NCBI GenBank assembly: GCA_963767925.1
Contig: CAVYGB010000010.1
Location: 544,001 to 608,000, forward strand
Length of the DNA: 64,000 nt
Reading direction: 5' to 3'
Source of the DNA: an uncultured delta proteobacterium
GTDB lineage: Bacteria > Myxococcota_A > Polyangia > Fen-1088
Below the pieces are notes generated by a model. It searched no databases. It was not told the DNA's origin and was given only the letters and a program-made list of their open reading frames with translations. The translations under genes were made by a program, and so were the position numbers. The stretch's first letter is position 1; each line of letters begins with the position of its first letter. Below, piece by piece: positions 5,027 through 27,683 of this stretch.

Positions 5027-5650
5027 ATGCTGGCGCCCGTGCGCGTCTCATCGGTTCGTCTCGCGGCGCTGGCCGGGCTGCTCCTGGCCGGAGCGGCGAC
5101 CCTCGGCCTGTCGCCGCCCGCCCTGGCCGCCGAGGGTGAGCCGTTCCTGCGGGGCCCCCACCCCTTCCGGAAGGAGAACGCCCTCTCGCTCGGGGCCGGC
5201 TACGGCGTGGCCAGCGGGTTTCACGGGGTGCAGGCCGGGCTGGACTACGGCTACGAGCTCTCGGGCAGCCTCTGGTTCGACCTGCGCTTGGACCTGCTCG
5301 ACGCCGCCGACGAGCGCTCGGTCACGCCCCCCTGCCCCACCTGCGGCGAGGTCGTCACCTACGCCGACGTGATGGCCGGCTTCCGCTACAAGCTGCAGAC
5401 CGACATCCCCCTCATCCCCTACGGCAGCGCGGTGGTGGGCCCGGTGTTCCTGTTTAACCGGGGGGCCTCCGGGGCCTTCGGCCTGGCCCTGCGCACGGCG
5501 GTGGGGGCCAAATATTTCCTCTACGAGTGGTTCGGGCTGGGGCTGGAGCTCGGGCTGCTCCTGGGCGGCGCGGTGGTTGACGAGGCGGCCGGCCTCGACT
5601 CCGCCCTGCGCATGGTCGACCTGCGGCTCGGCGCCGAAGTGCAGTTCTAG
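5027..5650 (+). CDS. Putative outer-membrane beta-barrel protein
   Basis: Signal peptide, alternating hydrophobic strands, C-terminal beta-signal LRLGAEVQF. Confidence 0.65.
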   Translation: MLAPVRVSSVRLAALAGLLLAGAATLGLSPPALAAEGEPFLRGPHPFRKENALSLGAGYGVASGFHGVQAGLDYGYELSGSLWFDLRLDLLDAADERSVTPPCPTCGEVVTYADVMAGFRYKLQTDIPLIPYGSAVVGPVFLFNRGASGAFGLALRTAVGAKYFLYEWFGLGLELGLLLGGAVVDEAAGLDSALRMVDLRLGAEVQF

Positions 5651-6850: not shown

Positions 6851-6887
6851 CGGACGCGCTGCCTTCAGCCCGGCACGAGACCGGTCG

Positions 6888-10854: not shown

Positions 10855-11189
10855 TCCGGGGGGGCGCCCCGCTCGGGGTGGCGCCTGCAGGGCGAGGTCG
10901 TCCACACGGGGCCAGAAGATCGAGAGCGCCCCTGGAAGGGGGAGCCCGCCGAGGGCGCACGGGTCCGGCCCGCCGTGGCGCGGCGGGAGGGCCGGAGGGC
11001 GGCCAAGACATGGAGGTGGAGGGCCACGGTTCTGCGACGGGCAGCAAGAAAGACGAAAGTCCGGAAGTAGTCCCGCCGAAGGGTTTGCGGTACGCTCGCA
11101 ATGCGTCCCGAAAAAAGTAGCTCGCTCACAAAGGCCCACATTTCTGGCGACGGGCGCGTCCCTCGCGCCTGCGCCGGTTAGAGAACCGG

Positions 11190-12275
11190 ATGGCCTTCCC
11201 GCACAAGAGCCAAAAGATCGCCGAAACCATCGCCCGCTGGTTCGAGGAACAGCGCTACCGACCCGGCGACCGCTTCCCCTCGGACCAGGAGCTGGCCCGC
11301 GAGTTCGGCGTCAACCACGTCACGGTGCGCACCGCCCTGCGCCGCTTCGTCGACCAGGGCTTGCTCGAGCGCAAGGTCGGCGCCGGCACCGTGGTCCGCG
11401 ATCCCAAGGCCCGCTCCGAGGCGGAGGCGCGGGGGGCCAACCCCGCGGTGGCCATCGCCATCCCCGACGCCACCCACTCCTTCTTCAGCGAGCTCCTGCG
11501 CACGGTGGAGGGCGCCCTGCACGGCACCGGCCGCCCGCTGATGCTGGGGCACACCTGGGAGCTGGCCCAGCGCGAGGAGCAGGTGGTCAACGCCTGGATC
11601 TCGCAGGGGGTCCGGCGCATGGTCCTCACCCCGCCCGTGTCAGAGGGACACTTTTACAACCGGCTCGTCAGCCAGGGCGTGCGCCTGGTGTTCGTCGACC
11701 GGCGGGTCGAGTCGGTCGACGTGCCCAGCATCGTCAGCCGCGACGAGGTGGGGATGGCCCAGGTCGTGAAATACGTGGTCGGGCTCGGCCACCGCCGCCT
11801 GGTCCACCTGGCCGGCCCGGTCGGCATCTGGACCGCCCGCCAGCGCCGCGACAGCTTCGCCCGCTCGGCGCGCGAGGCCGGGCTGTCCGAGCAGTCGGTG
11901 GAGATCTTGCCAGCCGGCTATTACATCGAGGACGGCTACACGGCGATGGTCCGCCGGCTGCAGTCGGGCACCCCGCCCGACGCCGTGGTGGGGGCCAACG
12001 ATCCGGTGGCGGTGGGCGCGGTCCGCGCCCTGGAAGAGCGGGGCCTGCGCGTGCCCGAGGACGTCACGGTGACCGGCTTCGGCGACACCGACATCGGGCG
12101 CAACTTCGGCCTCACGACGGTGCGCCAGTTCCCCGATCGCATGGGCTCCGAGGCCATCCGCCTCATGCTCGGCATCGAGCCGCTCAGCGCCCGCGACTCG
12201 ATCGAGCTGGTGCCCGAGCTGGTGGTTCGCACGCCCAGCCCCAGCGTCAGCCGCACCATCCGCGCGGCGACCTAG
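11190..12275 (+). CDS. GntR-HTH / LacI-type sugar-binding domain transcriptional regulator (AraR-like architecture)
   Basis: N-terminal PGDRFPSDQELAREFGVNHVTVRTAL...GAGT wHTH. C-terminal periplasmic-binding-like domain (NDPVAVGA, RVPEDVTVTGFGD, LTTVRQ). Confidence 0.9.
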   Translation: MAFPHKSQKIAETIARWFEEQRYRPGDRFPSDQELAREFGVNHVTVRTALRRFVDQGLLERKVGAGTVVRDPKARSEAEARGANPAVAIAIPDATHSFFSELLRTVEGALHGTGRPLMLGHTWELAQREEQVVNAWISQGVRRMVLTPPVSEGHFYNRLVSQGVRLVFVDRRVESVDVPSIVSRDEVGMAQVVKYVVGLGHRRLVHLAGPVGIWTARQRRDSFARSAREAGLSEQSVEILPAGYYIEDGYTAMVRRLQSGTPPDAVVGANDPVAVGAVRALEERGLRVPEDVTVTGFGDTDIGRNFGLTTVRQFPDRMGSEAIRLMLGIEPLSARDSIELVPELVVRTPSPSVSRTIRAAT

Positions 12276-12435
12276 TGCACCGCTCGCGAAATATCGTCAA
12301 GGCTGCGCCGACAATCCTGCGCCCCGCTTCGTTGCTCCTCCTCGGAATATGCCGGATATTCGTCGTCGTCGCGCCTCGCGGGGCCGCAGGCTTGTCGGCG
12401 GAATCCTTGACGCTATTTCGAGAGCGGTGCACTAG
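12272..12435. mobile_element. MITE-like element, 156 bp between two CTAG copies, ~55-bp imperfect terminal inverted repeats
   Basis: Left tgcaccgctcgcgaaatatcgtcaaggctgcgccgacaatcctgcgccccgc matches the reverse complement of the right end tgcaccgctctcgaaatagcgtcaaggattccgccgacaagcctgcggccccgc. CTAG at 12272-12275 and 12432-12435. Confidence 0.75.
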
Positions 12436-12438
12436 CGC

Positions 12439-12598
12439 CGCCGGAGCCCCTCACCCCTCCCTCTCCCCGCTCCGCGGGGCGAGGGAGAACAATCAGCCAG
12501 GTGCCCGCTTCGTCCTTCGCACTGGCTCCCCGTTGCCCGTTCGCCCTCGCCCCGCGGCAGCGGGGAGAGGGAGGGGTGAGGGGTGAGGGGCTCCGGCG
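12439..12598. repeat. REP-like paired palindromic intergenic element, copy 1
   Basis: Two inverted ~50-bp arms (ccggagcccctcacccctccctctccccgctccgcggggcgagggagaac and gttcgccctcgccccgcggcagcggggagagggaggggtgagggg...ctccgg), each itself a hairpin. Lies between convergent genes. Confidence 0.85.
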
Positions 12599-12607
12599 TC
12601 CGGTGGG

Positions 12608-13318
12608 CTAGGACATTCCTTTGTTGGAGTGCCAGACCGACTTCTTCTTCCCGGGCTTGGGCGGGGCGAGCAGGTCGGGGTTCTCGAGCAGCTTCTTCAG
12701 CAGGGCGGGCGGGTCGCCGTCGGCGGCCTTGCGCAGATCGCCCCCCTCGTCGCGCGCGATCTCGATCAGCAGCCGGTTCGACACGACCGAGCGCGGGGCC
12801 AGCTCGGTGATGTCCTCGCTGGTGGCCCAGGCGTCGCGGTGCTTGATCATCAGCCAGGCTGGCTTGGAGTCGCCGCCTCGCCCCCGGGTGCGCACGAGCA
12901 CCCAGGAGCCGCGCAGCTTCTTGCCCTCGAAACTCACCTTGAGGTCGCCCTTCTTCAAGGCCCCGTCCACGTCGGGATCCTCCGGGACCCAGACCCCCTG
13001 GTCCCAGATCATCACCGTGCCCCCCCCGTATTCGCCGGCCGGGATGACGCCCTCGAACTTGTTGTATTCGATGGGGTGATCCTCGACCTGCATCGCCAGC
13101 CGCTTGATGGCCGGATCGTAGGAGGGCCCCTTGGGGACGGCCCAGGACAGCATCACGCCCTTCCACTCCAGACGCACGTCGTAGTGCAGGGCGCTGGCTC
13201 GATGTTTTTGCACGACGAAGGCCAGCTTCTTGCGCCGGGGGGTGGTGGCGCGCTCCTTGCCCTTGGGCTCGGCCGTGACGTCGAAGCGGCGTTTCTTGTG
13301 GTACTCGCGCAGCGACAT
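12608..13318 (-). CDS. Stand-alone DNA ligase D 3'-phosphoesterase domain protein
   Basis: LREYHKKRRFDVTAEP, FVVQKHRASALHYDVRLE, SWAVPKGPSYDP..KRLAMQVEDHPIEY..FEGVIP.GEYGGG.VMIWD.G. No ligase or polymerase domain. Confidence 0.92.
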   Translation of the reverse strand: MSLREYHKKRRFDVTAEPKGKERATTPRRKKLAFVVQKHRASALHYDVRLEWKGVMLSWAVPKGPSYDPAIKRLAMQVEDHPIEYNKFEGVIPAGEYGGGTVMIWDQGVWVPEDPDVDGALKKGDLKVSFEGKKLRGSWVLVRTRGRGGDSKPAWLMIKHRDAWATSEDITELAPRSVVSNRLLIEIARDEGGDLRKAADGDPPALLKKLLENPDLLAPPKPGKKKSVWHSNKGMS

Positions 13319-13367: not shown

Positions 13368-14438
13368 TCAGCGGATCCGCCGGGCATGGTCGATCATCAG
13401 CGACACCCCCGGCGACATGTTGATCGGCTCCAGGGTGACATGGGGGTGACTGCTGGGCCAGATGCGAAAGACCTCGTCGGCGAAGCCCTGCCCGATCGCC
13501 TTGACCCCCCGGAAGTCGAGGACGACCGTGTGGTAGCGCTCGAGCGGGCGCAGCAGGCGCTGCGCCTCCGTGCGAGAGATGAAGCTCGTCCCCAGAGTCA
13601 CCACCACCCGGCTCCGGTCGATCATGGTGCGCTCGGCGTGGATGGCGAACAGCTCGGCGAGGGTGTGGCGGGGGCGCAGGTCGCCCTGGAAGCGCACGCG
13701 GGTGCCGGAGCGGGCGGAGGCCGCCGCGGTCGCCGTCTGCGCGGTCTGGTTGTCGAGCGTCCAGCGCAGGCCGTTGCTCTCCACCTCGAACCGGCGGGCC
13801 GCCCGCGAGCTGAAGAACAGGCCCACCCCGATCTGCCCCTCCGCCCAGAGCGGCTTGCTGGCCTGGGACAGCCGCTTGACCGCCTCCTCGACCGAGCCGA
13901 CGCTCAGCTTCCGGCGCAGGCTCGCGAGCAGCCCGACGCCGTCGTCGTGCACCTCGAAGGAGAGCGTGTCGTCGCTGGCCTGGGCGAAGCGCACCTCCAC
14001 CTCGTTGCCCCGCGAGTGCTCGATGGCGTTGTTGAGCACCTCGGTGAAGGCGTAACGGAACAGCTCCTGGACCGGGGCCGACATGCGGGCCAGGGCCGGG
14101 TGGAGCTGCAGCAGCTCCTGCCAGACGCGGTCCTCCGAGAGCACCGCCCGCGGGTAGCGGCGGACGAAGGCGACCGGGCTGGCCGGCGCCGCCACCGGGG
14201 CCGGGGTGGCGGCGGGGGCAGTGGGGGCAGGGAGCGGCGGGGGTGCCGTCCAGAGGTGGTAGCGAACCCGGCGCCCCGTCCCCTCGCGAACGACCCGGCC
14301 CTCCTTGATCAGGGCGGACAGGTGGCGGGTCACCACCGGACGGGTGACCTTCAGCCGCCGGGCCAGCTCCGCTGCCGACAGGCCGCCCCCCCGCTCCAGC
14401 AGGGTGGCGATGCGAGCTCGGGAGGAGGGGGGTGGCAT
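13368..14438 (-). CDS. wHTH + histidine-kinase-like ATPase + STAS-like (DUF4325) protein
   Basis: LSAAELARRLKVTRPVVTRHL HTH; FTEVLNNAIEHS (N box), DDGVG (G1), GVGLFFS (G2); C-terminal FISRTEAQRLL...VVLDFRGVKAIGQGFADEVF. Confidence 0.8.
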   Translation of the reverse strand: MPPPSSRARIATLLERGGGLSAAELARRLKVTRPVVTRHLSALIKEGRVVREGTGRRVRYHLWTAPPPLPAPTAPAATPAPVAAPASPVAFVRRYPRAVLSEDRVWQELLQLHPALARMSAPVQELFRYAFTEVLNNAIEHSRGNEVEVRFAQASDDTLSFEVHDDGVGLLASLRRKLSVGSVEEAVKRLSQASKPLWAEGQIGVGLFFSSRAARRFEVESNGLRWTLDNQTAQTATAAASARSGTRVRFQGDLRPRHTLAELFAIHAERTMIDRSRVVVTLGTSFISRTEAQRLLRPLERYHTVVLDFRGVKAIGQGFADEVFRIWPSSHPHVTLEPINMSPGVSLMIDHARRIR

Positions 14439-14465
14439 GTCAGGACCGGTGCGTCGGAAACTTTG

Positions 14466-14494
14466 ATCGTAAGTCGCCCACCCGATTTCGTAAA
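14466..14494 (-). promoter_or_regulatory. Putative sigma70-type promoter for the DUF4325 gene
   Basis: Minus strand TTTACG-17 nt-TACGAT, ending 27 nt upstream of the ATG at 14438. Confidence 0.5.
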
Positions 14495-14595
14495 CCCGCC
14501 CGACGTCCCACGCTGACATCCTGCGCCGCGCAGCCCGTCGGGGCCCGCCAAGGTGCCCACCGACGCGATGGCCGACGTGTTCCCCGCCCTGCCCG

Positions 14596-15726
14596 CTACC
14601 AGGCGCCGCCCAGCAACGGCGCGGTGGCGCCGGTGAGGCGCAGGCGTCCCGCCTCGGGGGTGAGGACCGGCAGCAGCGCCACCCGGCCGAAGCCCCAGCG
14701 GCCGTCGGCCGCGCGGGTCACCAGCGCGGGAGCCTCCAGGGCGACGCGGTCGTCGCGATCGGGCTGCATGTCCCGGGTGAAATAGGCGGCCACGGCCATG
14801 CCGGCGTACAGGCCCGCCAGCGCCGATCCGGCCAGGATGCGGGCGTCGCTGTCGCCGTCGGGTGAGCCGATGGCGAGGAAGGCGGCGGCGAAGCCGAGCA
14901 GGCCCCCGCCGAGGGCGCCGGTGTCGATGAACAGCATGCGGTTGCGGGGCAGGTCGTAGACCTGCGCGAGGGCGAGGCCGGCGGCGAGCCCGCCGTTCAT
15001 GCCCAGGCCCATCAGGGTGAAGGTGGCCCTGCTGTCCTCGGGCTGCACCAGGGCGGCCACCAGGCCGCCGGTCGCGAAGCCCCACAGCCCGCCCGAGCGC
15101 ACCATCTCGACGTCCCCCTGCTTCGGGTGGCGCCCCCGCGTGAGCAGGATGGCCGCCACGCCGCCGGCCAGGCCGGCGCCGAGCGCGCTGCCCACGACGA
15201 CCTCCTCGTCCCCGTCGGCGGCGGCCCCCCAGATGAGGCCGCTGTAGGTGCCGTAGTCAAAGCCGGTGATGGTCGACCAGGCCTGGGCGTTGGTGATCTC
15301 CCCGTCGCGGGTGCCGAGCAGCGAGAGGGTCAAGCCGACCGCCCCGCCGAGCAGCGGCGGCACCACCAGGGCCCGGCTGTCCTCGATGTCGGCGATGATG
15401 TCGAAGGCGACGCCGGCCCAGATCCCGTAGAGCGTGCCGCCGAAGACCAGCTTGCCGCGGCCCGAGCGATCGAGGCCGCCCCCCGCGGCCGGCACGATCG
15501 GCACCACCCCCTGGCACAGGGCAACGATCCGCCGGGCGACCGCCCGGTCCTCGTCGCCGAGGCCCGGGCCCTCCGCCAGGGCGGCGAGCGCGGGCAGCCC
15601 CTCGGCGCAGCCGGAGCGCAGGACCACGCCGAGCGCCTCGTCGATCGGCGAGGCCGGTGCCGCCGGCTGCGCGCGGGCCGCCGACGAGAACAGGGTGAGC
15701 GCGAGGAGGCCGAAGACGGATCTCAT
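14596..15726 (-). CDS. Hypothetical Gly-rich multi-pass membrane protein with signal peptide
   Basis: MRSVFGLLALTLFSSAARA signal, then many Gly/Ala-rich hydrophobic helices. GC-rich third codon positions in this frame. Confidence 0.7.
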   Translation of the reverse strand: MRSVFGLLALTLFSSAARAQPAAPASPIDEALGVVLRSGCAEGLPALAALAEGPGLGDEDRAVARRIVALCQGVVPIVPAAGGGLDRSGRGKLVFGGTLYGIWAGVAFDIIADIEDSRALVVPPLLGGAVGLTLSLLGTRDGEITNAQAWSTITGFDYGTYSGLIWGAAADGDEEVVVGSALGAGLAGGVAAILLTRGRHPKQGDVEMVRSGGLWGFATGGLVAALVQPEDSRATFTLMGLGMNGGLAAGLALAQVYDLPRNRMLFIDTGALGGGLLGFAAAFLAIGSPDGDSDARILAGSALAGLYAGMAVAAYFTRDMQPDRDDRVALEAPALVTRAADGRWGFGRVALLPVLTPEAGRLRLTGATAPLLGGAW

Positions 15727-15827
15727 GCCCGTCGACAAGTGCATTCTCGGTGCCAGGCCCGACCGGCCGCGGCCCGCGGCGCGTCCGCCGCCGGCCGTTG
15801 AATTTCTGACAGCCGGTGCACGCGTCA

Positions 15828-16151
15828 TCAAAGCCCGAAGGCCTGCTGCAGCTTCTGGAGCAGGTCCACGTCGTTGGTCTTGATCTTTCCTGTGAAAAAA
15901 TCGCCCATGCCCGGCTTCCAGGTGCCAGCCACCAGCTTCTCGAACAGATCCGCGGAGGTCTTCAACACGCAGTCGGCGCCCTCGGTCTTTCCGGGTGTGA
16001 CTGCGCAGGCCTCCGGCGTCAACGTCACCGTCCACTTCTGCCCCTCGCCGTCGCCGAGCGACAGGTAATAGGTGGTCTTCTTTTCCACCACCCCCGGGCG
16101 ATACCGCGCCTGGAGCGCGGCCAGCGTCTTCTGCAGATCGGGCGTCGCCAT
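15828..16151 (-). CDS. SCP2 sterol/lipid-binding domain protein
   Basis: 107 aa: KWTVTLT..CAV.PG...ADCVLKTSADLFEKLVAG..KP..DFFTGKIKT.DVDLL. RBS GAGGAAG; 17 bp downstream of the GT4 stop. Confidence 0.78.
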   Translation of the reverse strand: MATPDLQKTLAALQARYRPGVVEKKTTYYLSLGDGEGQKWTVTLTPEACAVTPGKTEGADCVLKTSADLFEKLVAGTWKPGMGDFFTGKIKTNDVDLLQKLQQAFGL

Positions 16152-16168
16152 GTCTTCCTCCCCGTTGT

Positions 16169-17230
16169 CTATGAAGCCAGAACCGTCTCGCACAACCCCT
16201 GCACCACCCGGGACGTCTGCAGCCAGGTGCCGTGGCCGCGGTAGCGGGCGAGCGCCCCCCGGGAGGCGGCGAGCAGCCGGTCGCGATCGGTCAGCGCCGC
16301 CAGGGCCGCCCGCCAGGCGCCGATGTCGTCGGGGGGGATGAGCGTCCCGGCGCCGGTGTCGCCGAGCAGCTCGGCGGTGCCCCCCTCGGTGGTGATGAGC
16401 AGGGGCAAGCCGGCCCCCAGCGCCTCGATGCCCGAGATGGGGTACGACTCGCGATCGGAGGGCAAGGCGAAGACGTGGCTGCGCGCCAGCAGCGCGGTCA
16501 GGGCCGGCTCGTCGAGCTGGCCGTGGAAGGTCACCCGATCGCAAAGGCCGCTGTCGGCGACGAACGCGCGCAGCCGGGCCACGTAGGCCGGGTCGCTCTG
16601 CAGGCTGCCGGCCAGATCGACGACCACCTCCGGACCGGAGCGGCTGAGGGCGGCGAGCAGGCGGTGGGCCCCCTTGTGGGGGGCCACGGTGCCGACACAC
16701 ACCACCCGCAGGGGCCCCGGCGCCGCGGCCCGCGCCGCCAGGGCGGCCTCGTCCACCGCCGAGGGGAGGTGGTCCCGCCCCGCGTAGGCCACCACCGAGG
16801 GGCCCACCTCCGGGCAGGCCGCGCGCACGTCCCCGAGGGTGTCCTCGCTGACCGTGACCACACCGTCCACGGATCCAAGATACGCCCGCTCGCACCGCTC
16901 GACCAGCCAGCGCCGCGGGGTGCTGGGTTGCCGCCCGGCCAGGTTGTGCACCAGGCTCACGATGCGAACCCCGGCCGCGCGCAGCCGGCGGCGGCGCAGG
17001 AACACCGAGGGGTGGATGAGCTCGTCCTCGATGATCAGGTCGAAGCGGTCGAGCCCCCCGGGCAGGGGCTGCAGGTTGTCCAGCAGGGCGCGGCGGTAGG
17101 TCCGCCAGGGCAGGGCCACCACCTCGACGCTGTGACCGAGCGCGCGCAGCCCGGCCACCACCTGGCGGTCATAGAGGAACCCGCCCGAGACGAGGTCGAG
17201 GCTGCCGTAGACCAGGAAGCCCAGGCGCAT
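16169..17230 (-). CDS. Glycosyltransferase family 4 (GT-B)
   Basis: SGGFLYDR, VGTVAPHKG, FALPSDRESYPISGIEALGAGLP (E-x7-E motif). Confidence 0.9.
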   Translation of the reverse strand: MRLGFLVYGSLDLVSGGFLYDRQVVAGLRALGHSVEVVALPWRTYRRALLDNLQPLPGGLDRFDLIIEDELIHPSVFLRRRRLRAAGVRIVSLVHNLAGRQPSTPRRWLVERCERAYLGSVDGVVTVSEDTLGDVRAACPEVGPSVVAYAGRDHLPSAVDEAALAARAAAPGPLRVVCVGTVAPHKGAHRLLAALSRSGPEVVVDLAGSLQSDPAYVARLRAFVADSGLCDRVTFHGQLDEPALTALLARSHVFALPSDRESYPISGIEALGAGLPLLITTEGGTAELLGDTGAGTLIPPDDIGAWRAALAALTDRDRLLAASRGALARYRGHGTWLQTSRVVQGLCETVLAS

Positions 17231-17245
17231 CGGCAGCGGCGCCCG

Positions 17246-17632
17246 CTAGCGGAAGGTGATCGTGTAGGTCGTGAAGGCGTCGTCGTTTTCCCAGAGCTTG
17301 ACCTCGAGCGCCCGCAGGCGATCGGTGGGCACCGCCGCGGTCATCCGCTCGGCCAGGATGCGGGCGAAGTGCTCGAGGCTGGGGTTGAGCCCCGCGAACT
17401 CGGGCAAGCTGTTGAGCGACTTGTCGCTGTAGCGCTCGACGAGGGCCTGCAGGTGCTGGCTGACGACCGCGATGTCGAGCAGGTAGCCGTGCTGGTCGAG
17501 CTCGTCGCCGGCGAAGATGACCTCCAGCCGGTAGGGGTGCGAGTGGTGCTCGTTCTCCTTGCCCCAGTCGCCCCCGATCAGATGGTGCTGGGCGATGAAG
17601 CTGCGGATGACACCGACCGTGTATCGAGCCAT
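17246..17632 (-). CDS. 6-pyruvoyl/6-carboxy-tetrahydropterin synthase-like T-fold protein (COG0720), Cys-less variant
   Basis: FIAQHH, HSHPYRLEV, LNSLPEF...NPSLEHFAR, VKLWEND. The protein contains no cysteine. Confidence 0.85.
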   Translation of the reverse strand: MARYTVGVIRSFIAQHHLIGGDWGKENEHHSHPYRLEVIFAGDELDQHGYLLDIAVVSQHLQALVERYSDKSLNSLPEFAGLNPSLEHFARILAERMTAAVPTDRLRALEVKLWENDDAFTTYTITFR

Positions 17633-17653
17633 GGCTGTTCTCTCCTTTTTTCG

Positions 17654-18655
17654 TCAGGCGTAGCTGAACACGACCTGCAGCGCCTGGGCAGCCCCCGAAT
17701 CGAGGAGCTGGTAGGCCTCCGCCGCGCGCGCGAAGGGGAAACGATGGGTGACCAGCGCCTTCGCGTCGAGCTGGCCGAGGGCCCGCCAGGCCGTCGCCAT
17801 CCGCCGCTGGCGGTCCCAGCGCCCCGAGATCCCCGGGGCCAGGTGGCTGACCTGGCTGCTCCGCAGGGTCAGCCGCCCGCGGTGAAAGTGCCCACCCAGG
17901 CTGACCGGCGCCCGCTTCTCCCCGTAAAACGATCCCACCACCACCCGCCCCTCGCGTCCGGTGACGGCGATGGCCGCGTCGAGGGCGGCCGGGTTGCCGG
18001 TCAGCTCGAAGGTCAGGTCGGCCCCGTCGCCCCCCAGGGCGGCGCGGGCCTCGGCCGCGGTCGCCACGACGGTGGCCCCCAGCCGGCGGGCCAGCGCGGC
18101 GCGCGCCGGCACCGGCTCGATCGCGACCAGGCGCTCCAGCGGGAAGCGGGCCAGCAGGCCGGTCGTGCACAGCCCGACCACCCCCTGGCCCAGCACCGCC
18201 ACCCGCTCACCCAGGCCCGGCTCGCCGTCGAGCAGCAGGTTGACCGCGGTCTCCTGCGAGGGGAGCAGCGCCGCGGTCTCGGGGTCCATCCCCGCCGGCA
18301 GCGCGAAGGCCTCACCCACCGCGGTGACGAAGTGGCTGGCGTGGGGCTGGAAGGAGAAGACAGCCCGCTCGAGCCAGGCCCGATCGACCCCCGCGCCCAC
18401 CGCCACAACCGTGCCGACCGCGGCGTAGCCGTAGCGGAAGGGGTAAGCGAAGACGTTGCCCTGCAGGGCCGGCAGCGTGTCGTCGAGCGGCAGGTCGGCC
18501 GGGAGCTGGCCCCGATAGGCCAGCAGCTCGGTCCCCGCGCTCACCCCGGAGAAGGCGCTTTGGACCAGCAGCTCGGCCGGCCCCGGCGGAGGACAGGGCT
18601 CCTCCGTCACCTCCACCCGGCCCGGGCCGGTGAAGACCAGGGCGCTGCGGTTCAC
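17654..18655 (-). CDS. MDR-family (zinc-binding ADH-like) dehydrogenase lacking canonical Zn ligands
   Basis: SGVSAGTE and YPFRYGYAAVG replace the GxCxxD and GHE motifs; Rossmann VLGQGVVG. Start overlaps the upstream stop. Confidence 0.88.
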   Translation of the reverse strand: MNRSALVFTGPGRVEVTEEPCPPPGPAELLVQSAFSGVSAGTELLAYRGQLPADLPLDDTLPALQGNVFAYPFRYGYAAVGTVVAVGAGVDRAWLERAVFSFQPHASHFVTAVGEAFALPAGMDPETAALLPSQETAVNLLLDGEPGLGERVAVLGQGVVGLCTTGLLARFPLERLVAIEPVPARAALARRLGATVVATAAEARAALGGDGADLTFELTGNPAALDAAIAVTGREGRVVVGSFYGEKRAPVSLGGHFHRGRLTLRSSQVSHLAPGISGRWDRQRRMATAWRALGQLDAKALVTHRFPFARAAEAYQLLDSGAAQALQVVFSYA

Positions 18656-19431
18656 GCCCCGCCCCAGCGGAGCGGGCCGGCAGCGATCCAGTCGTCGGCC
18701 AGTCGATGCATGGACGTGCTGTCGAGGCGGGGCAGCTTCTCCCGCTCGAGCGAGCCGAGGGCCGACATGCCCCCCAGGAGCTGCGGTGCCACCGTCACGA
18801 CCGCGTAGTCGACGAGCGAGGCGCGCAGGAAGCTGGTGAGCACCTTGCCGCCGCCCTCGACCATCACCCGGCGGATGCCGCTCTCGGCGAGCGAGGACAG
18901 CAGGCGCGACAGGTCGACCCAGCCATTGGCCCAGGCGGGCAGGCGCATGATCTCGGCCCCCCGGGCCTCGAGCTGGGTCCGCAGCTCCTCGCGCGCGTTT
19001 TCGGTGCAGGCGATCCGCACCGGACGGCCGCCACCGGCGGCCAGCACCTTGGCGCAGACAGGCGTGCGCAGGCAGCTATCGAGCACCACCGGGCTGGGGC
19101 TGGGCCCCTGCCACAGGCGCACCGTGAGCGACGGGTCGTCGGCCAGCAGCGTGCCGATGCCGACCACGATGACGTCGTGGGCGGCGCGCAGCGCGTGGGT
19201 GAGGGCCAGCGATTCGCTGCCGCTCAACCGGTACGGCTTGCCATTGTCGAGCGCGATGCTCCCGTCGAGGCTTTGCGCCCAGGCCAGGGTGACGAATGGC
19301 CTTCCGTTGCGAGTGTCGGCACGCTCGGCTTTACGGAGGTCATCGAGCACACGCCCGATCACTTCTGCGGTGGAATGCGGCTTGGTCAGGCTAACTCCCT
19401 GCCCGTTGGTAGTGATCTTTTGACGGTCCAA
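18652..19431 (-). CDS. RibD C-terminal-type pyrimidine reductase (no deaminase domain)
   Basis: RPFVTLAWAQSLDGSIA, THALRAAHDVIVVGIGTLLADDPSLTVR, VMVEGGG, VAPQLLGG. Start (TTG) uncertain. Confidence 0.88.
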   Translation of the reverse strand: MDRQKITTNGQGVSLTKPHSTAEVIGRVLDDLRKAERADTRNGRPFVTLAWAQSLDGSIALDNGKPYRLSGSESLALTHALRAAHDVIVVGIGTLLADDPSLTVRLWQGPSPSPVVLDSCLRTPVCAKVLAAGGGRPVRIACTENAREELRTQLEARGAEIMRLPAWANGWVDLSRLLSSLAESGIRRVMVEGGGKVLTSFLRASLVDYAVVTVAPQLLGGMSALGSLEREKLPRLDSTSMHRLADDWIAAGPLRWGGA

Positions 19432-19789
19432 GGGGAGCCAGTCTAGGAGAGGCCCCGATCGCCTTCAACCTCGGCGGCAGGCCCCGCACCGCGCTAACGG
19501 CTCGTGTTCTACGTTGAGTGGTCACGGGAGCGCCGCAGCGGGGAGCGGGTTTGCGAGGTCCGTTATACACACCGAGGTAAACATGGCCGGGTCCGGCGAG
19601 CGGTTGAAGACCGCTACGTTTACCTGGAATCGGGAAAAAAAGCGCCACCGTTCGCGCCACCGTCAGATCGACCGGCTGGGGGCTCGTGATCGGTCGGGAC
19701 ACCACATCGAGTATAAGCGCCAATCCGCGCGCTCCCACTTTTGCTGCTTCATCCGGTCGCGTGGTGTCAACCCCCGCGTCGTCCCGGCG

Positions 19790-22573
19790 TCACTCCCAGG
19801 CCAGGGTGAGCAGGAGCTGCGGGTCGAGGCGGGCCGGCACGCCGGCGAGCGGCAGGGCCGACCCCACGACCGACCCCGACAGCCGCAGGCCGAGCGCGCC
19901 GGGCGATCTCGACAGGGCCCGCGGCAGCGGCAGGCGCACGCCCTCGCGCACCGGCAGCCGCAGCTCGGCCCCCGCGCCCCAGACGCGAGAGAGCCCGCGG
20001 GTGGTCCAGGCCGAGAGGATCTGCGCGCGCGCGGCGAACCAGCTCGCCCGGTTCTCCGGGTCGAGCGCGAGGCGCCCCTCGAGGCCGGCGTAGGCGCCCA
20101 GGCCGAGCAGGGTCTGTCCCCCAGCGCGATCGAAGGTGCCGGCCAGCCCGCTGGCGACGATCAGGTGGTGGGCGAGATCTTCGGAGGCCAGCAGCGGCAG
20201 CAGGTGGCCGCCGCCCAGCCGGGCCTCGCCGGTCCGCCCCACCCGCGCGCGGCTGCCGAGGTCGGCGAACAGCTCGCCCCCCGCGCGCCCGGGGCGCAGG
20301 GAGCGGTAGCCGAGCAGCCGGGCGTTCCAGGCGGCCAGCCCGGGCCAGCGGCCGCCGCCGTCGAAGGCGAGCGCGGTCTCGGTGCGGGCGACGGTGAGCG
20401 CGGTGTGGGCGGGGAAGCCGAAGCGGCGCTGGTCGCCCAGCCGCTCGTCGTGCATGGCTCCCGCCAGCACGAGCACGCCGCGCGCGCCCGCGTCCGACCG
20501 GTCGAGCCCGGCCCCCACCTCCACCTCGTCGATCCCGGTGCGCGGGACGGCGATCCGGTGGGCCGCCGCCTCCTCGCGGGCCCGCTCGGCGTCGTCGCTC
20601 CGGAAGATCCGCAGGGGGCTGACCGCGGAAACATCGGCCAGCTCGGCCCGCGCCCGCTGCAGGCCGAGCAGCGCGGGTGACACCGCCGTGACGTAGGGGT
20701 GGTCGATGAGGGTGTCGAGGCCGGCGGCGAAGCGCTGCTCGCCCAGGGTCCGCTCGCGCGCGGGGAACAGGACCGCCTCGCGCAGGCCCGGGACCTCGCC
20801 CGGATCGTCGTGGCGGGCCTCCGCCTGCAGCAGCACCAGGCGCCGCAGATCGTCGGCCAGGGACGGGTGGCTCAGGCAGCCGCCGTCGAGCAGCACCCGC
20901 ACCCGCTGGTAGCCGCGCAGGCGGGTGGCCACCTCGTCGCCGCCGGTCTCGGCGAGGACGGCGCCCAGGGAGAAGCGGCAGGGACCCAGCGCCGGGTCGC
21001 CGGCCCGGGGGTGCCGCGCGAGCCGGGCCCGGAGCTCGACCAGCGCCGCCTGCAAGCGGGCTCGCTGCGCGCGCACGGCCGCCTGCTCGGCCTGCAGGTT
21101 GGCCAGCGCCTGCAGGTGGGCCTCGAGCAGCGCGCTCTGCCGGAGCAGCTCCTGCAGGTCGGCGGGCGCGCCGCCCGCGCGGTGCTGCAGCAGCAAGCCC
21201 CGATAGGCCTCCGCCCGGGCCTCGGGCGCGCCGGCGCGCACCACCTCCCAGAGGGCGTCGTGCCGGGCCCGCTGCGCGGCGGGCGCGGCCGCGCGCAGGC
21301 GGAGGGCGGCGCGCTGGCGGCGGGCCGCTGCGCGCCGGGCCTCGTGCTCGAAGCTGAGCAGCGTCCCCGGAATGAAGGTCAGCAGCGGCCCGCCGCCGGC
21401 CGAGCGGGTGCGGGCGTACCCCTCGAGCGTCCCGGCCGGCGTGGTGGCCAGGGCCTCGGGGAAGCGGACCTGCCGGTCGTCCGGCAACACGCTGTTTACC
21501 AGGTCGACCATCAGCGTCGCGCAGTTGCTCCCGAAGAAGAAGTAGCGGTAGCGGCCCGCCTGGCGCAGCGACCAGAGCCGCTGCAGCAGGGCCTCGGTCT
21601 CGGCGGGCGACAGGTGCAGGTGGTAGCGGCGCAGGTCCCGCCCCTCGGTGACGACGTACGTGCGGTAGGTCTCGAAGAAGCTGCGCTCGAGGAGGCTGGC
21701 CTGGTAGGCGCCGGCGATGCCCTTGAGCGCGTAGAGCGGCTCGTCGGCCAGGGGGGCGGCGCTCTCGACGAGGAAGGCCAGGGTGCGATCTTCGATGAGA
21801 TCGGGCGCCTCCGGCGGCTCGCCAGCCGGGGCCCGGGCGACCAGCCGCAGGAACACGTGGCCAAACATCGAGGCCATGGTGACGGTCGAGGGGGTGGCGA
21901 GGTGAAGCTCGATCCGTGCGAGCCGCTCGCGGGCGGCCCAGCGCTGATAGGCCAGGCAGGTGGGCGGGTCGCGCAGCGCCGCCGGCAGCGGGGCCAACGC
22001 CCGCAGCCGCGCGTGCAGGAAGGTGGCCTGGGGCAGCAGCCGGCACTGCAGGGGCAGATCGCCGCGGTCGCCGGCCGGGCGCAGGGTGCGCGCCTCGATC
22101 CAGGCGGCGGCGAAGGTGGCCAGATCCCAGGCCGGCGATCGCTGGCCGGCGGGCGCGGCGTAGGCCCCTTCCGCCAGGTTGCGCGCGCTCCAGCGCCAGG
22201 GCGCCGCCCGCGCCCGCGACCAGCCGTTGAGCCGCCGCCAGGCCGGCTCGCGTGACCAGCCCGCGCGCGCGTCGGCGACGGCGAGCGCCCCCAGCAACAC
22301 CTGCTGCCGGACCGAGCCGGCCCCCCCGCCGGCGCAGATCCGGATCCGCCCGGCGGCGGCGTCCACCGCCACCGCGGTCGAGGGCTCGCCGGTCGGGCAG
22401 CGCCCCGGCGCGACGCCGAGATCGAGCCCCGCCCGCAGCTCGGCCGGCAGGGCCGCCAGCGCCCAGGCGGCGGCCGCGGCCTCGACCCCGGCGAGGCCCC
22501 CCTCGGCCCGCGCTCCGGAGGTGGGCCCGAGCAGCAGCGCCCCGCCGACCGCCGCGAGCGCGGCCCGCCTCAC
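19790..22573 (-). CDS. Large secreted DUF4105 (Lnb-like) domain protein with probable C-terminal beta-barrel
   Basis: ASMFGHVFLRL, YALKGIAGAY, YVVTEGRDL, YRYFFFGSNCAT, TTP motifs; C-terminal amphipathic strands. GTG at 22573 overlaps the upstream TGA. Confidence 0.75.
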   Translation of the reverse strand: MRRAALAAVGGALLLGPTSGARAEGGLAGVEAAAAAWALAALPAELRAGLDLGVAPGRCPTGEPSTAVAVDAAAGRIRICAGGGAGSVRQQVLLGALAVADARAGWSREPAWRRLNGWSRARAAPWRWSARNLAEGAYAAPAGQRSPAWDLATFAAAWIEARTLRPAGDRGDLPLQCRLLPQATFLHARLRALAPLPAALRDPPTCLAYQRWAARERLARIELHLATPSTVTMASMFGHVFLRLVARAPAGEPPEAPDLIEDRTLAFLVESAAPLADEPLYALKGIAGAYQASLLERSFFETYRTYVVTEGRDLRRYHLHLSPAETEALLQRLWSLRQAGRYRYFFFGSNCATLMVDLVNSVLPDDRQVRFPEALATTPAGTLEGYARTRSAGGGPLLTFIPGTLLSFEHEARRAAARRQRAALRLRAAAPAAQRARHDALWEVVRAGAPEARAEAYRGLLLQHRAGGAPADLQELLRQSALLEAHLQALANLQAEQAAVRAQRARLQAALVELRARLARHPRAGDPALGPCRFSLGAVLAETGGDEVATRLRGYQRVRVLLDGGCLSHPSLADDLRRLVLLQAEARHDDPGEVPGLREAVLFPARERTLGEQRFAAGLDTLIDHPYVTAVSPALLGLQRARAELADVSAVSPLRIFRSDDAERAREEAAAHRIAVPRTGIDEVEVGAGLDRSDAGARGVLVLAGAMHDERLGDQRRFGFPAHTALTVARTETALAFDGGGRWPGLAAWNARLLGYRSLRPGRAGGELFADLGSRARVGRTGEARLGGGHLLPLLASEDLAHHLIVASGLAGTFDRAGGQTLLGLGAYAGLEGRLALDPENRASWFAARAQILSAWTTRGLSRVWGAGAELRLPVREGVRLPLPRALSRSPGALGLRLSGSVVGSALPLAGVPARLDPQLLLTLAWE

Positions 22574-23238
22574 CGGACGGCCGCGAGCGCGACGGCCCGC
22601 AGGCGGTCGTCGCCGAGCGCGCGCCGGCCCACCCGGGTGAAGGCCACGGCGAAGCGCCGCGCCCGGCCCTCGTCGATGCGCCCGTCGAGCGCGGCCAGCA
22701 GCTCCCCCTGCTCGCGCGAGCCGTCGAGCGTCCGGGACAGCCGATCCCGCTCGGCGGCGGTCAGCCCCAGCCCCCGGGTCCAGGCCGCCAGCAAGGGCCC
22801 CTCCCCCACCGCCATGTCCCGGGCGACCTGGGCGTGGTTGCGCTGAAGGAAGCGGGCCAGCAGGCGCATCTTCCTCGGTTCGTCGGCCCGGGCCAGCGCT
22901 CCGGTCGCCCGGACCAGCCCGATCGCGGTGGCGCCCACCGCCACCAGCAGCAGAGCCACCGAGATCAGCACCGTGCCCCGCTTCTGACTGGAGCCGTCGC
23001 TCGACTCCTCGGTGGTCCCGTTGGTGCTCCGCTCGGGCGAGGCCTCGGTCGAGTTCTCGCTCCGGTTGGACGAGTCGTTGGAGTTCCCCGAGCTGTCGTT
23101 CGAGGAGTTGGAGGAGTTGTCCGAGCCCTTCGACCCTTCGGACCCCTCGGAGGCCAGCCCGGGGCGCACCCCGCCGACCAGCAAGGCGCCGATCAGCACC
23201 CCCGAGAGAACGAACCGCGCGCAGCCACCGGCAACCAT
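22570..23238 (-). CDS. DUF3015-like protein with Ser/Asn-rich N-terminal region
   Basis: Signal/TM, low-complexity SDNSSNSSNDSSGNSNDSS, second TM, then FLQRNHAQVARDMAVGEGPLL resembling the DUF3015 C-terminal motif as I recall it. Confidence 0.6.
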   Translation of the reverse strand: MVAGGCARFVLSGVLIGALLVGGVRPGLASEGSEGSKGSDNSSNSSNDSSGNSNDSSNRSENSTEASPERSTNGTTEESSDGSSQKRGTVLISVALLLVAVGATAIGLVRATGALARADEPRKMRLLARFLQRNHAQVARDMAVGEGPLLAAWTRGLGLTAAERDRLSRTLDGSREQGELLAALDGRIDEGRARRFAVAFTRVGRRALGDDRLRAVALAAVR

Positions 23239-23319
23239 CCAGAGTCTCCGCTCCTGTCATCGGCAACGCGGGCCGGTTCCCTGAGCGAAAACGTCCGCCC
23301 CCGTGGCAAGTTACCCCCC

Positions 23320-24297: not shown

Positions 24298-24611
24298 CGC
24301 CGGGACGGAACGTGGCTCGCGATCGCGCCGGCTTTGCCGGGGCTGATCGCCGGGTCTCTCCGCGCGCCGCCCGGAGCGCTGTCCGCTCCGTCCCACCGCC
24401 GGACGTGCCGACGGTCGCTGGGGGGGCAGAACCGTCGAGCAAACATCGCGGCACCGGTCGATCTGACAACGGACCTCTCGATCAGGCAGGATGGCGGCGA
24501 CGGGGCCATGTGGCCACGCGTCATCGCTTTACCCGGGGAGTAGAGGTTGCCCCCGGCTTTTAAGACCCTACGTTATTGCCCAGAGCCGCCCATGTGCTCG
24601 AGGAGGTCCGC

Positions 24612-24989
24612 GTGATCCTGGTGGTAGACGACGACCCCGAAGTGCTCACCGCACTCTCGGAAACCCTCGAGGCAGAGGGCTACGCGGTGCGCGGAGCGCG
24701 CGACGGCATCGAAGCGCTGGAGGTGATCCGGGAATGTCGACCGGACCTGATCATCACAGATCTTCTGATGCCGACCATGACCGGGTTCGAGCTGCTGGGT
24801 GCGTTGCACGACGACCCCGAGCTGGCGACGATCCCGACCCTCATCATCACGGCCGCCCGCGGCCCCGTGGCGCAGCAGACCCGGGGCGCCCAGGCCGTCT
24901 TCCCCAAGCCGCTCGACCTCGACCGGCTGCTGCGCGCGATCAACGTCTACACGCACAACGACAACAACAGCAACAACAGCAGCAACTGA
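24612..24989 (+). CDS. Single-domain response regulator (CheY-like)
   Basis: ILVVDDD, LIITDLLMP (phospho-Asp), FPKP. GAGGAGG RBS before GTG at 24612. Confidence 0.9.
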   Translation: MILVVDDDPEVLTALSETLEAEGYAVRGARDGIEALEVIRECRPDLIITDLLMPTMTGFELLGALHDDPELATIPTLIITAARGPVAQQTRGAQAVFPKPLDLDRLLRAINVYTHNDNNSNNSSN

Positions 24990-25115
24990 GCGCCGGCCGA
25001 CGGGTCGCACCCCGCCGCGCAAGTAGGCGCAAGCGACAGGAGTAGGCGTCGCCACCGGGACGGCCGCTGCCCGCAAAATGCAGCGGCCGAACGTCAAAAC
25101 GGGTAGCATCGTTGC

Positions 25116-25628
25116 GTGGTGGTGGTGGCGGTGGCGGACGGATCGAAGGCGCTGTTGCTGTTCGAGGTCGCCGGGGGGCTGTTCGCGATCGATCCGGCGG
25201 CCATCCGCCAGATCGTCCCGCTCCCCCTGCTCGCGCATCCGCCGGGCACCCCCTTGCTGCTCGAGGGCTTCCTCGATCTCGCCGGCGAGGCGATCCCCGT
25301 CCTCCACCTCGCCCGCCTGCTTCAGCTCGCGGCCGGGCCGCCCGACGTCTACGCCCACCTGCTCGTCCTCAAGCAGCCGGGCCTGCCTTTGGCCCTGCTC
25401 GTGGATCGGGCGGTCGGCCTCACCTCGGCCCCGGCCGAGGCCTTCACCCCGCTCGAGCGGGGCCAGACGTTCAACGACTGCGCCGAGCATCTGCTGCGCC
25501 TCGGTGAGCAGACCGTCCCCCTCCTCTCGGTCGAGCGCCTGCTGCTGCGGCAGGAGCGGGCCCGCATTGCCGCCCTCCAGGCCATGGAGCAGCTCCGCCT
25601 GCAGCGACTCCTGGAAGCGTCCCCTTGA
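25116..25628 (+). CDS. cheW: Chemotaxis coupling protein CheW
   Basis: LLFEVAGGLFAI, PGTPLLLEGFLDLAGEAIPVLHL, ALLVDRAVG. Start uncertain. Confidence 0.85.
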   Translation: MVVVAVADGSKALLLFEVAGGLFAIDPAAIRQIVPLPLLAHPPGTPLLLEGFLDLAGEAIPVLHLARLLQLAAGPPDVYAHLLVLKQPGLPLALLVDRAVGLTSAPAEAFTPLERGQTFNDCAEHLLRLGEQTVPLLSVERLLLRQERARIAALQAMEQLRLQRLLEASP

Positions 25629-27070: not shown

Positions 27071-27074
27071 CGCC

Positions 27075-27683
27075 ATGAGAACCGGCAAGATCGACTGGAC
27101 GGCGCTGAAGCACACCCTGGCGGAGGGCGAGCGCAAGCTGGCGGCGGCCCTGGTCTTTGACGAAGCCCGCCGGCAGGCGCTCCTGCGCCAGCGCGCCACC
27201 TACCTGGCCGCGCACCAGGCCGTGCACCCGACGGTGAGCGCGTCCCATTCGTTCCTGGTCTTCCTCCTCGGCCAGGAGAGCTACGCCCTGGGGCTGGGCG
27301 CGCTCGGGCAGATCTTGCCCCTCGACCACCTGGTGCCGGTCCCGGGCGCGCCCGCCACCATCCTCGGCGTCATGAGCCTGCGGGGGGAGGTCGGGACGGT
27401 CTGGAGCCTGGCCCGGCTGCTCAATCTGCCGCCCGCCCCACCGGTCGCCGGGGGTCACGTGCTGGTCCTCAAGGGGAACGGCGAGCAAGGCCTGGCGGTG
27501 GACTACGTGGAGGGCACCCGGGAGATCGACGCCGGCGCGCTCGCCCCGGCCTCGGAGGGCGCCCTGTTACCCCTGCGTTTTCTCCGCGGCCTCACCCGGG
27601 AGGGCGTCCACGTCCTCGACGCCGAGACCCTCCGGGGGGCCATGTCGTCGAACGCCGATCAGGCAAGGGAGCCACGAACATGA
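27075..27683 (+). CDS. cheW: Second CheW (WspD-like N-terminal extension)
   Basis: [41 protein letters not shown]. Confidence 0.88.

Follow-up and report, generated by a model that had tools for sequence, protein, structure and literature searches.

The window, a 64,000-nucleotide stretch of contig CAVYGB010000010.1 (positions 544,001 to 608,000 of the forward strand) from an uncultured delta proteobacterium (Myxococcota_A; Polyangia; Fen-1088), contains an operon in which a reductase-only RibD protein (RibD_C), a medium-chain dehydrogenase/reductase (MDR), a T-fold protein related to 6-pyruvoyltetrahydropterin synthase (PTPS) and a family 4 glycosyltransferase (GT4) are encoded in succession. 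These genes form a real, strongly conserved biosynthetic module that occurs in both bacteria and archaea. On balance, we favor the view that the locus encodes the core, cytoplasmic enzymes of a conserved pathway branching from the first steps of riboflavin synthesis. Six conserved members of the module are present in the window, in two places, together with two local additions (Table 1). An initial annotation of this DNA had proposed that a GTP-derived heterocycle or polyol is reduced, glycosylated and attached to a membrane lipid; this reading is largely right, apart from an argument built on an SCP2-fold protein encoded downstream of the GT4.

A 24-sequence alignment of the T-fold protein served as query for a scan of one genome per species, in which the search patterns were motifs of the protein's subfamily. 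It yielded 221 stretches; confirmation left 150, and the analysis covered the top 80 of these. All open reading frames (ORFs) within 8 kb were clustered; the 42 loci with at least 8 kb on both sides are referred to as well flanked. The 80 loci represent at least six phyla and include Myxococcota/Polyangia, Chloroflexota, Actinomycetota, Desulfobacterota, Gammaproteobacteria (Methylococcales among them), Calditrichia and the cultured Cohnella silvisoli. The closest loci are from Myxococcota/Polyangia, with up to 77% identity. RibD_C is encoded in 52 of the 80 loci (34/42 well flanked), the MDR in 66 (36/42) and the GT4 in 67 (35/42), mostly directly after the PTPS gene; in 34 of the 42 well-flanked loci the RibD_C orthologue lies upstream of the MDR gene. 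With few exceptions the genes share one strand and run RibD_C-MDR-PTPS-GT4, as in the window. The four-gene arrangement is not due to chance, as the order recurs across phyla. The neighborhood analysis seeded with the PTPS-like protein, which the initial annotation had suggested as a check, thus finds the genes together and in the same order in other genomes. The similar gene set that the initial annotation placed in actinobacteria and haloarchaea, accompanied by a CDP-alcohol phosphatidyltransferase and a methyltransferase, is a real association that is wider than stated.

The recurrent partners of the core are a CDP-alcohol phosphotransferase (26/80 loci), a 300-residue class I methyltransferase (23/80), a CMAS-like methyltransferase (14/80), an LPG_synthase_TM flippase-like protein (14/80; above the TIGR00374 cut-off), a 209-residue protein of no family (13/80), a YdjC deacetylase (12/80), a small DUF7475-like protein with four transmembrane (TM) segments (10/80) and an FkbM methyltransferase (7/80). 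Sulfotransferases (5 loci), a Wzy_C protein, an Exo_endo_phos protein and a sulfatase-family transferase are local extras in some loci. Fusions involving the T-fold protein are rare, comprising one MDR-PTPS and one methyltransferase-PTPS protein. Pseudonocardiaceae loci (L044, at 11157-12687 and 13429-14553, L056 and L071) add PfkB kinase, cytidylyltransferase-like and GT9 heptosyltransferase-like proteins, a set resembling a divided HldE with an added heptosyltransferase, which suggests that glycosylation goes further there. Two gammaproteobacterial loci and that of Natronorubrum bangense also have an ornithine cyclodeaminase/mu-crystallin family gene close to the cluster (coordinates L054 17402-18475 and L084 14249-15256), which may be a coincidence.

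A protein search of plasmid records gave 10 records, all haloarchaeal megaplasmids, at 39-49% identity. Four annotated regions among them were inspected and bring the total to 84 loci. The MDR-PTPS pair and the methyltransferase are present in 4/4 of these regions, the GT4, the phosphotransferase and DUF7475 each in 3/4, and RibD_C in 0/4; the haloarchaeal MDR copies (4/4 loci) are 44-50% identical to that of the window. DUF7475 adjoins the phosphotransferase in Haloarcula sinaiiensis and Natronorubrum bangense, where it scores above the Pfam cut-off; the DUF7475 protein of Haloarcula halophila scores below it. The Haloarcula halophila cluster contains a GTP cyclohydrolase IIa that passes the NCBIfam cut-off, and a creatininase-family gene is found near the Haloarcula sinaiiensis cluster.

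Within the window, ORFs were judged by third-position G+C. Values in the chosen frames of the operon genes are 0.86-0.97, as expected for a genome of ~72% G+C (the window value), and the ORFs are therefore taken as real coding sequence. The five genes from RibD_C to the SCP2-fold protein all lie on the minus strand with intergenic spacings of -4, 21, 15 and 17 bases, in agreement with the co-oriented, overlapping or closely spaced genes originally described; Pfam confirms the domain names given to all five, and the multi-TM protein said to follow them is indeed there, with at least five hydrophobic segments in a crude Kyte-Doolittle scan. A terminator-like hairpin with a T run, located by pattern scan between the upstream Lnb_N gene and RibD_C, marks the upstream edge of the transcription unit (five such sites vs 1.3 expected in shuffles). 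The Lnb_N gene (19790-23266, minus strand) encodes an Ala/Arg-rich 1158-residue protein whose sole match is that periplasmic domain, over residues 440-596. Rfam found nothing at E values up to 1 in positions 19350-19850, which include the 358-base leader; a riboswitch or other RNA upstream of RibD_C was ruled out, and the whole window gave one tRNA (673-745). A sigma-70 promoter pattern scan returned 0 sites, a result that says little for such organisms.

The RibD_C protein contains the Pfam RibD_C domain alone (3.1e-41, residues 45-249) and lacks a deaminase domain; a Pfam scan of 30 representatives of the recurrent neighbor families found no deaminase domain either. It narrowly passes the TIGR00227 domain cut-off (153.3 vs 150.15) and falls below both equivalogs, the archaeal reductase TIGR01508 (125.3 vs 186.45) and the eubacterial RibD TIGR00326 (96.9 vs 156.35). 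Its best solved relatives are 7lrh, 6p8c and 2azn, the latter two being archaeal 2,5-diamino-6-ribosylaminopyrimidinone 5'-phosphate reductases, and we predict that the window protein is probably a 2,5-diamino-6-ribosylamino-4(3H)-pyrimidinone 5'-phosphate reductase. Bacteria deaminate this intermediate before reducing it; archaea reduce first, and the ribityl compound is a normal intermediate of archaeal riboflavin synthesis. This difference would explain why RibD_C is found in the bacterial loci and in none of the four haloarchaeal ones. Together, the distribution of RibD_C and the order of steps point to 2,5-diamino-6-ribitylaminopyrimidinone 5'-phosphate as the branch point.

GTP cyclohydrolase II (GCH II) is encoded just upstream of RibD_C in 19/80 loci and as a stand-alone gene within 8 kb in 12/42 well-flanked loci. 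GCH II-RibD_C fusions in L044 and L057 were confirmed by Pfam, and those in L023, L060 and L068 are apparent from length and alignment. These neighbors and fusions, with the GTP cyclohydrolase IIa and the creatininase-family gene of the haloarchaea, uphold the GTP origin proposed in the initial annotation. In 24/24 cluster GCH II copies the residue equivalent to E. coli RibA Y105 is still Tyr, which we take, by a presumed Tyr/Met rule, to indicate the deformylated product; a formyl-retaining GCH II of the SCO6655 type was rejected on the same presumption. The statement that the window encodes no GTP cyclohydrolase also holds: 19 cluster-linked GCH II queries found no match in it, and a Pfam scan of 40 window proteins was negative for rib, que, fol and GTP cyclohydrolase domains. 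The cluster resembles the early archaeal and fungal riboflavin pathway in the adjacency or fusion of GCH II to an archaeal-reductase-like RibD_C and, in haloarchaeal loci, in the GTP cyclohydrolase IIa and creatininase-family genes. It differs from that pathway in having no deaminase, lumazine synthase, riboflavin synthase or DHBP synthase nearby; the MDR, the T-fold protein and the GT4 stand downstream of the early riboflavin-type steps instead.

The MDR protein matches Pfam ADH_zinc_N (6.3e-12), with no ADH_N match, and its closest solved relatives are polyol, polyol-phosphate, threonine and butanediol dehydrogenases. The residues aligned with the catalytic zinc ligands Cys, His and Glu of those enzymes are Ala, Tyr and Ala, and this part of the alignment scores low. 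At the sites of these ligands, the motifs [AG][IV]SxGTE and YGY are conserved in 48 aligned members, namely those of the 68 family members that are 320-370 residues long. We assign the protein to the MDR superfamily, as a member predicted to lack the classical catalytic zinc ligands.

The T-fold protein matches Pfam PTPS (PF01242) at 3.9e-25, falls in PTPS-family clusters of the Protein Atlas and is labeled 6-carboxytetrahydropterin synthase in public annotations. The QueD model TIGR03367 gives 42.6 bits vs a cut-off of 89.25. A profile of 24 relatives matches PDB 3d7j (SCO6650) at 8.9e-15 and QueD at ~1e-3, and 3d7j is also the top fold match (template-modeling score 0.89) of the AlphaFold model (predicted local distance difference test score 91.5). 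Relatives at E ≤0.001 number 2137 among 2156 candidates, the best 120 all being at least 59% identical. His16, His30, His32, Glu26, Asn27 and Glu115 are invariant in the 24-sequence alignment; with distant and haloarchaeal members added, His16, Glu26, His32, Asp70 and Glu115 are still invariant. HMMER aligns Glu26 to the catalytic Cys27 of QueD and Arg69-Asp70 to QueD Asp70-His71. The Cys-Asp-His triad of QueD and PTPS is replaced by Glu26, Arg69 and Asp70, and the Glu that anchors the pterin or pyrimidine (Glu115) is retained.

The protein departs from each of the described PTPS motifs. The CxxxHGH motif of PTPS-I/QueD is absent, and the window has no queC or queE. For PTPS-II, Gly24 stands at the relevant position of CxxxxxHGH (the motif as quoted in PMC5041015). 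For PTPS-III, ExxHGH, the invariant Glu lies four, not three, residues before the first His of HSH, and Asn27 occupies the Glu position. In place of the PTPS-IV signature FGPAQ, the window protein has DWGKEN, with WG[KRAG]EN in 24/24 aligned relatives, and haloarchaeal members have PGPEG or PGQEG with the invariant Glu there. With the missed QueD and PTPS motifs and the missed NCBIfam equivalog cut-offs, the view that the operon is none of the standard riboflavin, queuosine and folate types stands.

Among the PTPS types, PTPS-IV comes closest. Proteins of this type, with the signature FGPAQ, are described in PMC5445326 as adjoining GCH II (PF00925, mislabeled FolE2) and RibD_C (PF01872). The window protein shares with them the T-fold and PF01242, and it likewise has RibD_C in its operon and GCH II in related loci. 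SCO6650, of the PTPS-IV type, is the best match in both sequence and fold and also lacks the catalytic Cys, but it carries FGPAQ at the signature and an Ala where the window family keeps His32. Judged by its residues, the window protein is closest to the PTPS-IV type; since it misses the FGPAQ signature, we do not file it as PTPS-IV proper. The family may represent PTPS-V. PTPS-IV is said, on unpublished work, to act in F420 synthesis, and what PTPS-V does is described as unclear, in the section of PMC5041015 on these types. The text layer of Figure S4 in PMC5445326 lists PF00107, PF00534, PF01066, PF03706, PF05165, PF13649 and PF02636 directly beside the two cluster nodes in question, the listed neighbors including ADH_zinc_N, GT4, CDP-OH_P_transf, LPG_synthase_TM, GTP cyclohydrolase III and a methyltransferase; this is a listing of text, not of network edges. 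It hints that a 2017 neighborhood network had glimpsed the association, which was never interpreted in print.

The GT4 matches Pfam Glycos_transf_1 (PF00534) at 2.2e-23 and, in its N-terminal part, PF13439 at 4.4e-07, which places it in family GT4. No NCBIfam model reaches its cut-off (MshA model, 38.4 vs 462.5). With a profile of 31 orthologues, the leading solved relatives are a sucrose-phosphate-synthase-like protein, MshA, Alr3699, BshA, PimB' and GlgM. By this ranking, the GT4 resembles enzymes whose sugar acceptors are small alcohols, in many cases phosphorylated. The first steps of mycothiol and bacillithiol synthesis offer a parallel: the profile matches MshA at 1.6e-34 and BshA at 8.4e-29, and as a deacetylase follows the glycosyltransferase in those pathways, a YdjC-family deacetylase follows in 12 related loci. 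The parallel ends there, in that the equivalog cut-offs are missed widely and no cysteine ligase or inositol-phosphate synthase is encoded nearby. YdjC and the flippase-like protein also recall HpnK (YdjC) and HpnL (flippase-like), since the same families stand beside a glycosyltransferase (models 61.6 and 48.5 bits); the cluster proteins are below cut-off and no hopanoid genes are present, and the analogy is one of logic only.

A second locus in the window encodes two further members, a CDP-alcohol phosphotransferase and a class I methyltransferase, which the initial annotation had overlooked. The phosphotransferase matches Pfam CDP-OH_P_transf (3.2e-15), has ~6 hydrophobic segments and reaches no NCBIfam cut-off. 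CDP-alcohol phosphotransferases are multi-TM proteins that carry the motif D(x)2DG(x)2AR(x)8G(x)3D(x)3D; the signature is intact here as DLVDGYVARKLGQESALGGRLDVILD, which identifies the protein as such an enzyme. All 26 of the 26 cluster-linked phosphotransferases match it, those of Polyangia at 47-52% identity, and the reverse search with the window protein found homologues in 30/84 loci, including 3/4 haloarchaeal ones. The methyltransferase shows a weak Methyltransf_12 match; 23/23 cluster-linked 300-residue methyltransferases match it full-length (the best four at ~44-45% identity), and the reverse search gave homologues in 29/84 loci, including 4/4 haloarchaeal ones. By these reciprocal matches, we assign both as orthologues of the cluster-linked proteins, located 30 kb from the core. 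A VOC/glyoxalase gene (49133-50092), which lies between the two, and a TonB-like gene beside the phosphotransferase were considered as members and rejected, with homologues in 0/84 loci each.

The signature motif and multi-TM architecture of the phosphotransferase are shared with phosphatidylinositol-phosphate (PIP), archaetidylinositol-phosphate (AIP) and di-inositol-phosphate (DIPP) synthases. The pgsA, PIP, AIP and DIPP synthase models nevertheless match the cluster phosphotransferase weakly, all of them far under their cut-offs (AIP synthase, for example, 22.9 vs 180), and the cluster proteins form a separate subfamily with DUF7475 and the flippase-like protein as partners, unlike the polyol-phosphate enzymes. 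At L078, a 790-residue apparent fusion (5621-7993, minus strand) carries both CDP-alcohol phosphotransferase and sulfatase-family (LtaS/EptA-like) domains; some lineages may hand the phospho-alcohol on from the lipid to a further acceptor.

In the nearest Polyangia relatives the phosphotransferase gene is convergent and comes right after GT4, a place taken in the window by the genes for the SCP2-fold and multi-TM proteins. The SCP2 domain is supported by Pfam (1.5e-06, 28.9 bits vs a cut-off of 21.3), and the gene, which starts 17 bases past GT4 and has a GGAGG-like site upstream, is probably co-transcribed with the core but lineage-specific. Kinship of the SCP2 protein to DUF7475, which fills the same position elsewhere, was rejected, as the two gave no alignment. 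The multi-TM protein has no Pfam, NCBIfam or PADLOC match, and its nearest Protein Atlas clusters are unnamed proteins of Myxococcota and Gemmatimonadota. Homologues of the two were found in 0/80 loci by tblastn and 0/84 by phmmer (best E 0.11). Both are local additions whose link to the pathway is their operon position alone, and the earlier argument that the SCP2 gene supports a lipid product falls, the SCP2 and multi-TM proteins being without counterpart in the 84 related loci.

Table 1. Features of the two loci in the window (positions in the 64,000-nucleotide stretch; aa, amino acids).
Feature	Positions	Strand	Remarks
RibD_C	18652-19431	-	259 aa, TTG start
MDR dehydrogenase	17654-18655	-	333 aa
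PTPS-like T-fold protein	17246-17632	-	128 aa
GT4 glycosyltransferase	16169-17230	-	353 aa
SCP2-fold protein	15828-16151	-	107 aa
Multi-TM protein	14596-15744	-	382 aa; 83 bases past SCP2
CDP-alcohol phosphotransferase	47931-49040	+	369 aa
Class I S-adenosylmethionine methyltransferase	50151-51059	+	302 aa
Terminator-like hairpin and T run	19641-19658	-	pattern scan

The gene content, synteny, fusions and family assignments suggest a route of which each chemical step and the product are proposed from sequence. GCH II, encoded outside the window, would convert GTP to 2,5-diamino-6-ribosylaminopyrimidinone 5'-phosphate, and the reductase-only RibD_C, acting without prior deamination, would yield 2,5-diamino-6-ribitylaminopyrimidinone 5'-phosphate. 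Bacteria would not otherwise make this ribityl compound, so a dedicated reductase would be needed. The MDR and the PTPS-IV-like T-fold protein, regarded as a constant pair, would then tailor the 2-amino-4-oxopyrimidine polyol phosphate, the MDR through redox chemistry on the polyol side chain and the T-fold protein through metal- and Glu26-dependent chemistry on a ring anchored by Glu115. The MshA/sucrose-phosphate-synthase-like GT4 would add a sugar to a hydroxyl, which YdjC might deacetylate in some lineages, and the methyltransferase of the second locus would methylate the compound. The phosphotransferase would perform a phosphodiester coupling in the membrane, together with DUF7475 and the flippase-like protein, the product most likely being a phospholipid head group.

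Attachment to a membrane lipid is suggested by the CDP-alcohol phosphotransferase, the flippase-like protein and DUF7475. A tentative and distinctly less secure extension of the pathway is that it makes an unrecognized class of phospholipid, in at least six bacterial phyla and haloarchaea, with a GTP-derived head group that would be a glycosylated, methylated ribityl-diaminopyrimidinone or a derived pteridine. The dedicated phosphotransferase would attach this head group and the flippase-like protein would move the lipid to the outer leaflet.

Several observations weigh against the proposed pathway or its lipid end product. GCH II is absent from the window and, within 8 kb, from most loci, and the phosphotransferase is adjacent in only 14/42 well-flanked loci. 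CDP-alcohol phosphotransferases also make soluble phosphodiesters (di-inositol phosphate synthase is an example), so a lipid product is not required. Cohnella silvisoli (L067, 6835-11149) has a minimal RibD_C-MDR-PTPS-GCH II form without GT4 or phosphotransferase nearby, and the core may yield a soluble product to which different lineages add different decorations. The PTPS-like gene occurs without MDR, RibD_C and GT4 in 5/80 loci whose flanks are long enough, and the zinc-ligand position H30 is Asn in 2/10 aligned T-fold homologues. The 80 loci are a biased sample, having been found with motifs of the T-fold subfamily. The chemical steps are predictions from genes, no homologue of which has a known product. 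At the Cohnella locus, a stand-alone gene for a nonribosomal peptide synthetase condensation domain adjoins on the opposite strand.

The same enzymes could be read as making a pterin glycoside, which we consider rather unlikely. The MDR would oxidize the ribityl 2'-hydroxyl and the ketone would close on the 5-amino group, so that 7,8-dihydroneopterin 3'-phosphate is reached with no need of GTP cyclohydrolase I. The pterin side chain would then be the target of the PTPS-like protein, and the GT4 would form a soluble glycoside comparable to the biopterin glucoside of cyanobacteria, any phosphotransferase making a charged phosphodiester and not a lipid. This reading draws on the PTPS family membership and retained ring-anchoring Glu of the T-fold protein, and on the polyol and polyol-phosphate dehydrogenases among the MDR relatives. 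As in pterin glycoside synthesis, a PTPS-family protein is encoded beside a ~353-residue GT4, of which the solved 5ze7 and 9v0l are detectable relatives. The single GT4 sequence matches the tetrahydrobiopterin glucosyltransferase at 1.5e-07, and the profile does so at 1.9e-24 but ranks it 11th, MshA and sucrose-phosphate synthase being nearer. The catalytic Cys and His of PTPS/QueD are absent, the cyclohydrolase is of type II and not I, and the reading does not account for the flippase-like and DUF7475 membrane proteins. Moreover, reduction at C1' followed by oxidation at C2' would arrive at the product of GTP cyclohydrolase I and a phosphatase, making a dedicated GCH II and reductase redundant. 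YdjC deacetylases (12 loci) and sulfotransferases (5) would be in keeping with pterins that carry amino sugars or sulfate. Pterins of this kind occur in Sulfolobus and halobacteria; our literature search found no description of them. Halopterins, considered as a possible product, were set aside, that search giving a passing mention without structures.

Cleavage of the compound to an amino-polyol head group seems less likely still. The metal-bound water of the T-fold protein and Glu26 would cleave the C6-N bond to give ribitylamine 5-phosphate (an aminopentanetetrol), which methyltransferases would N-methylate and the phosphotransferase would link to lipid, yielding aminopentanetetrol-type phospholipids. 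The clusters hold 1-3 different methyltransferases and a CDP-alcohol phosphotransferase, and three His with a Glu may resemble hydrolytic zinc sites; yet the GT4, the commonest partner (35/42), would have no role, and the MDR step would go unexplained. Aminopentanetetrol lipids occur in Aquificales. Archaeal lipids carry aminopentanetetrol heads with 1-3 N-methyl groups and an O-methyl variant (PMC11346949, PMC6423904, PMC2686161), and their biosynthetic genes are not named in the available portions of these papers. As far as the accessible text goes, the lipids are placed in methanogens; the 84 loci include no methanogens or Aquificales. Halobacteria carry the cluster, but a 2019 survey, in its available part, ties the head group to methanogens only. 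The S- and N-containing head groups of haloarchaea were rejected as products, the accessible part of PMC6423904 giving a hexose, a C6H10NO5 sugar and 1-2 sulfates, nothing GTP-derived. Finally, the genes could be a housekeeping RibD (riboflavin) and QueD (queuosine) beside an unrelated dehydrogenase and polysaccharide glycosyltransferase. The TIGR00227 score of RibD_C and the public name of the T-fold protein lend this some color, but RibD_C lacks the deaminase domain, the T-fold protein falls well short of QueD in score and motif, the window has no queC/E, ribB/E/H or fol genes, and the order of the four genes persists across phyla and into archaea, all of which makes it very improbable. Anti-phage defense, raised by a partial GT4-conflict Pfam match, was rejected, PADLOC matching none of the six proteins.

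Elsewhere in the window, the gene directly downstream of the multi-TM protein (13368-14519, minus strand) encodes a winged helix-turn-helix domain, a histidine-kinase-like ATPase and a STAS-like DUF4325; it has weak Csa3-like PADLOC matches and no counterpart in any of the 80 related loci. Beyond it, 12608-13318 (minus strand) encodes a 236-residue stand-alone LigD 3'-phosphoesterase domain protein without ligase or polymerase domain. At the window start, a fragment of a phage-integrase-family gene (1-660, plus strand) runs off the edge beside the tRNA (minus strand), and the two may mark the edge of an integrated element. Positions 24576-34117 (plus strand) hold a complete chemosensory cluster (response regulator, two CheW, CheR-TPR, methyl-accepting chemotaxis protein, CheA-CheW-receiver hybrid, CheB and hybrid kinase), followed on the opposite strand by a 1258-residue hybrid histidine kinase. 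A 994-residue protein (56129-59113, plus strand) combines lamin-tail, CotH kinase and PA14 domains.

The cluster proteins pass no NCBIfam model (June 2026) beyond generic domains, and our literature search found no paper naming the product of the cluster, in line with the initial statement that no product is established. With a gene order kept from Myxococcota to Halobacteria, a vitamin intermediate and membrane enzymes, the compound should be of general importance. Its identity would assign a function to PTPS-IV-like T-fold proteins that are publicly recorded as QueD, and would explain the reductase-only RibD_C genes of bacteria. Culturable carriers exist, among them Cohnella silvisoli and several Haloarcula and Haladaptatus strains, which makes the question directly testable. 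The gain may be a nucleotide-derived membrane-lipid head group or a new pteridine-type cofactor.

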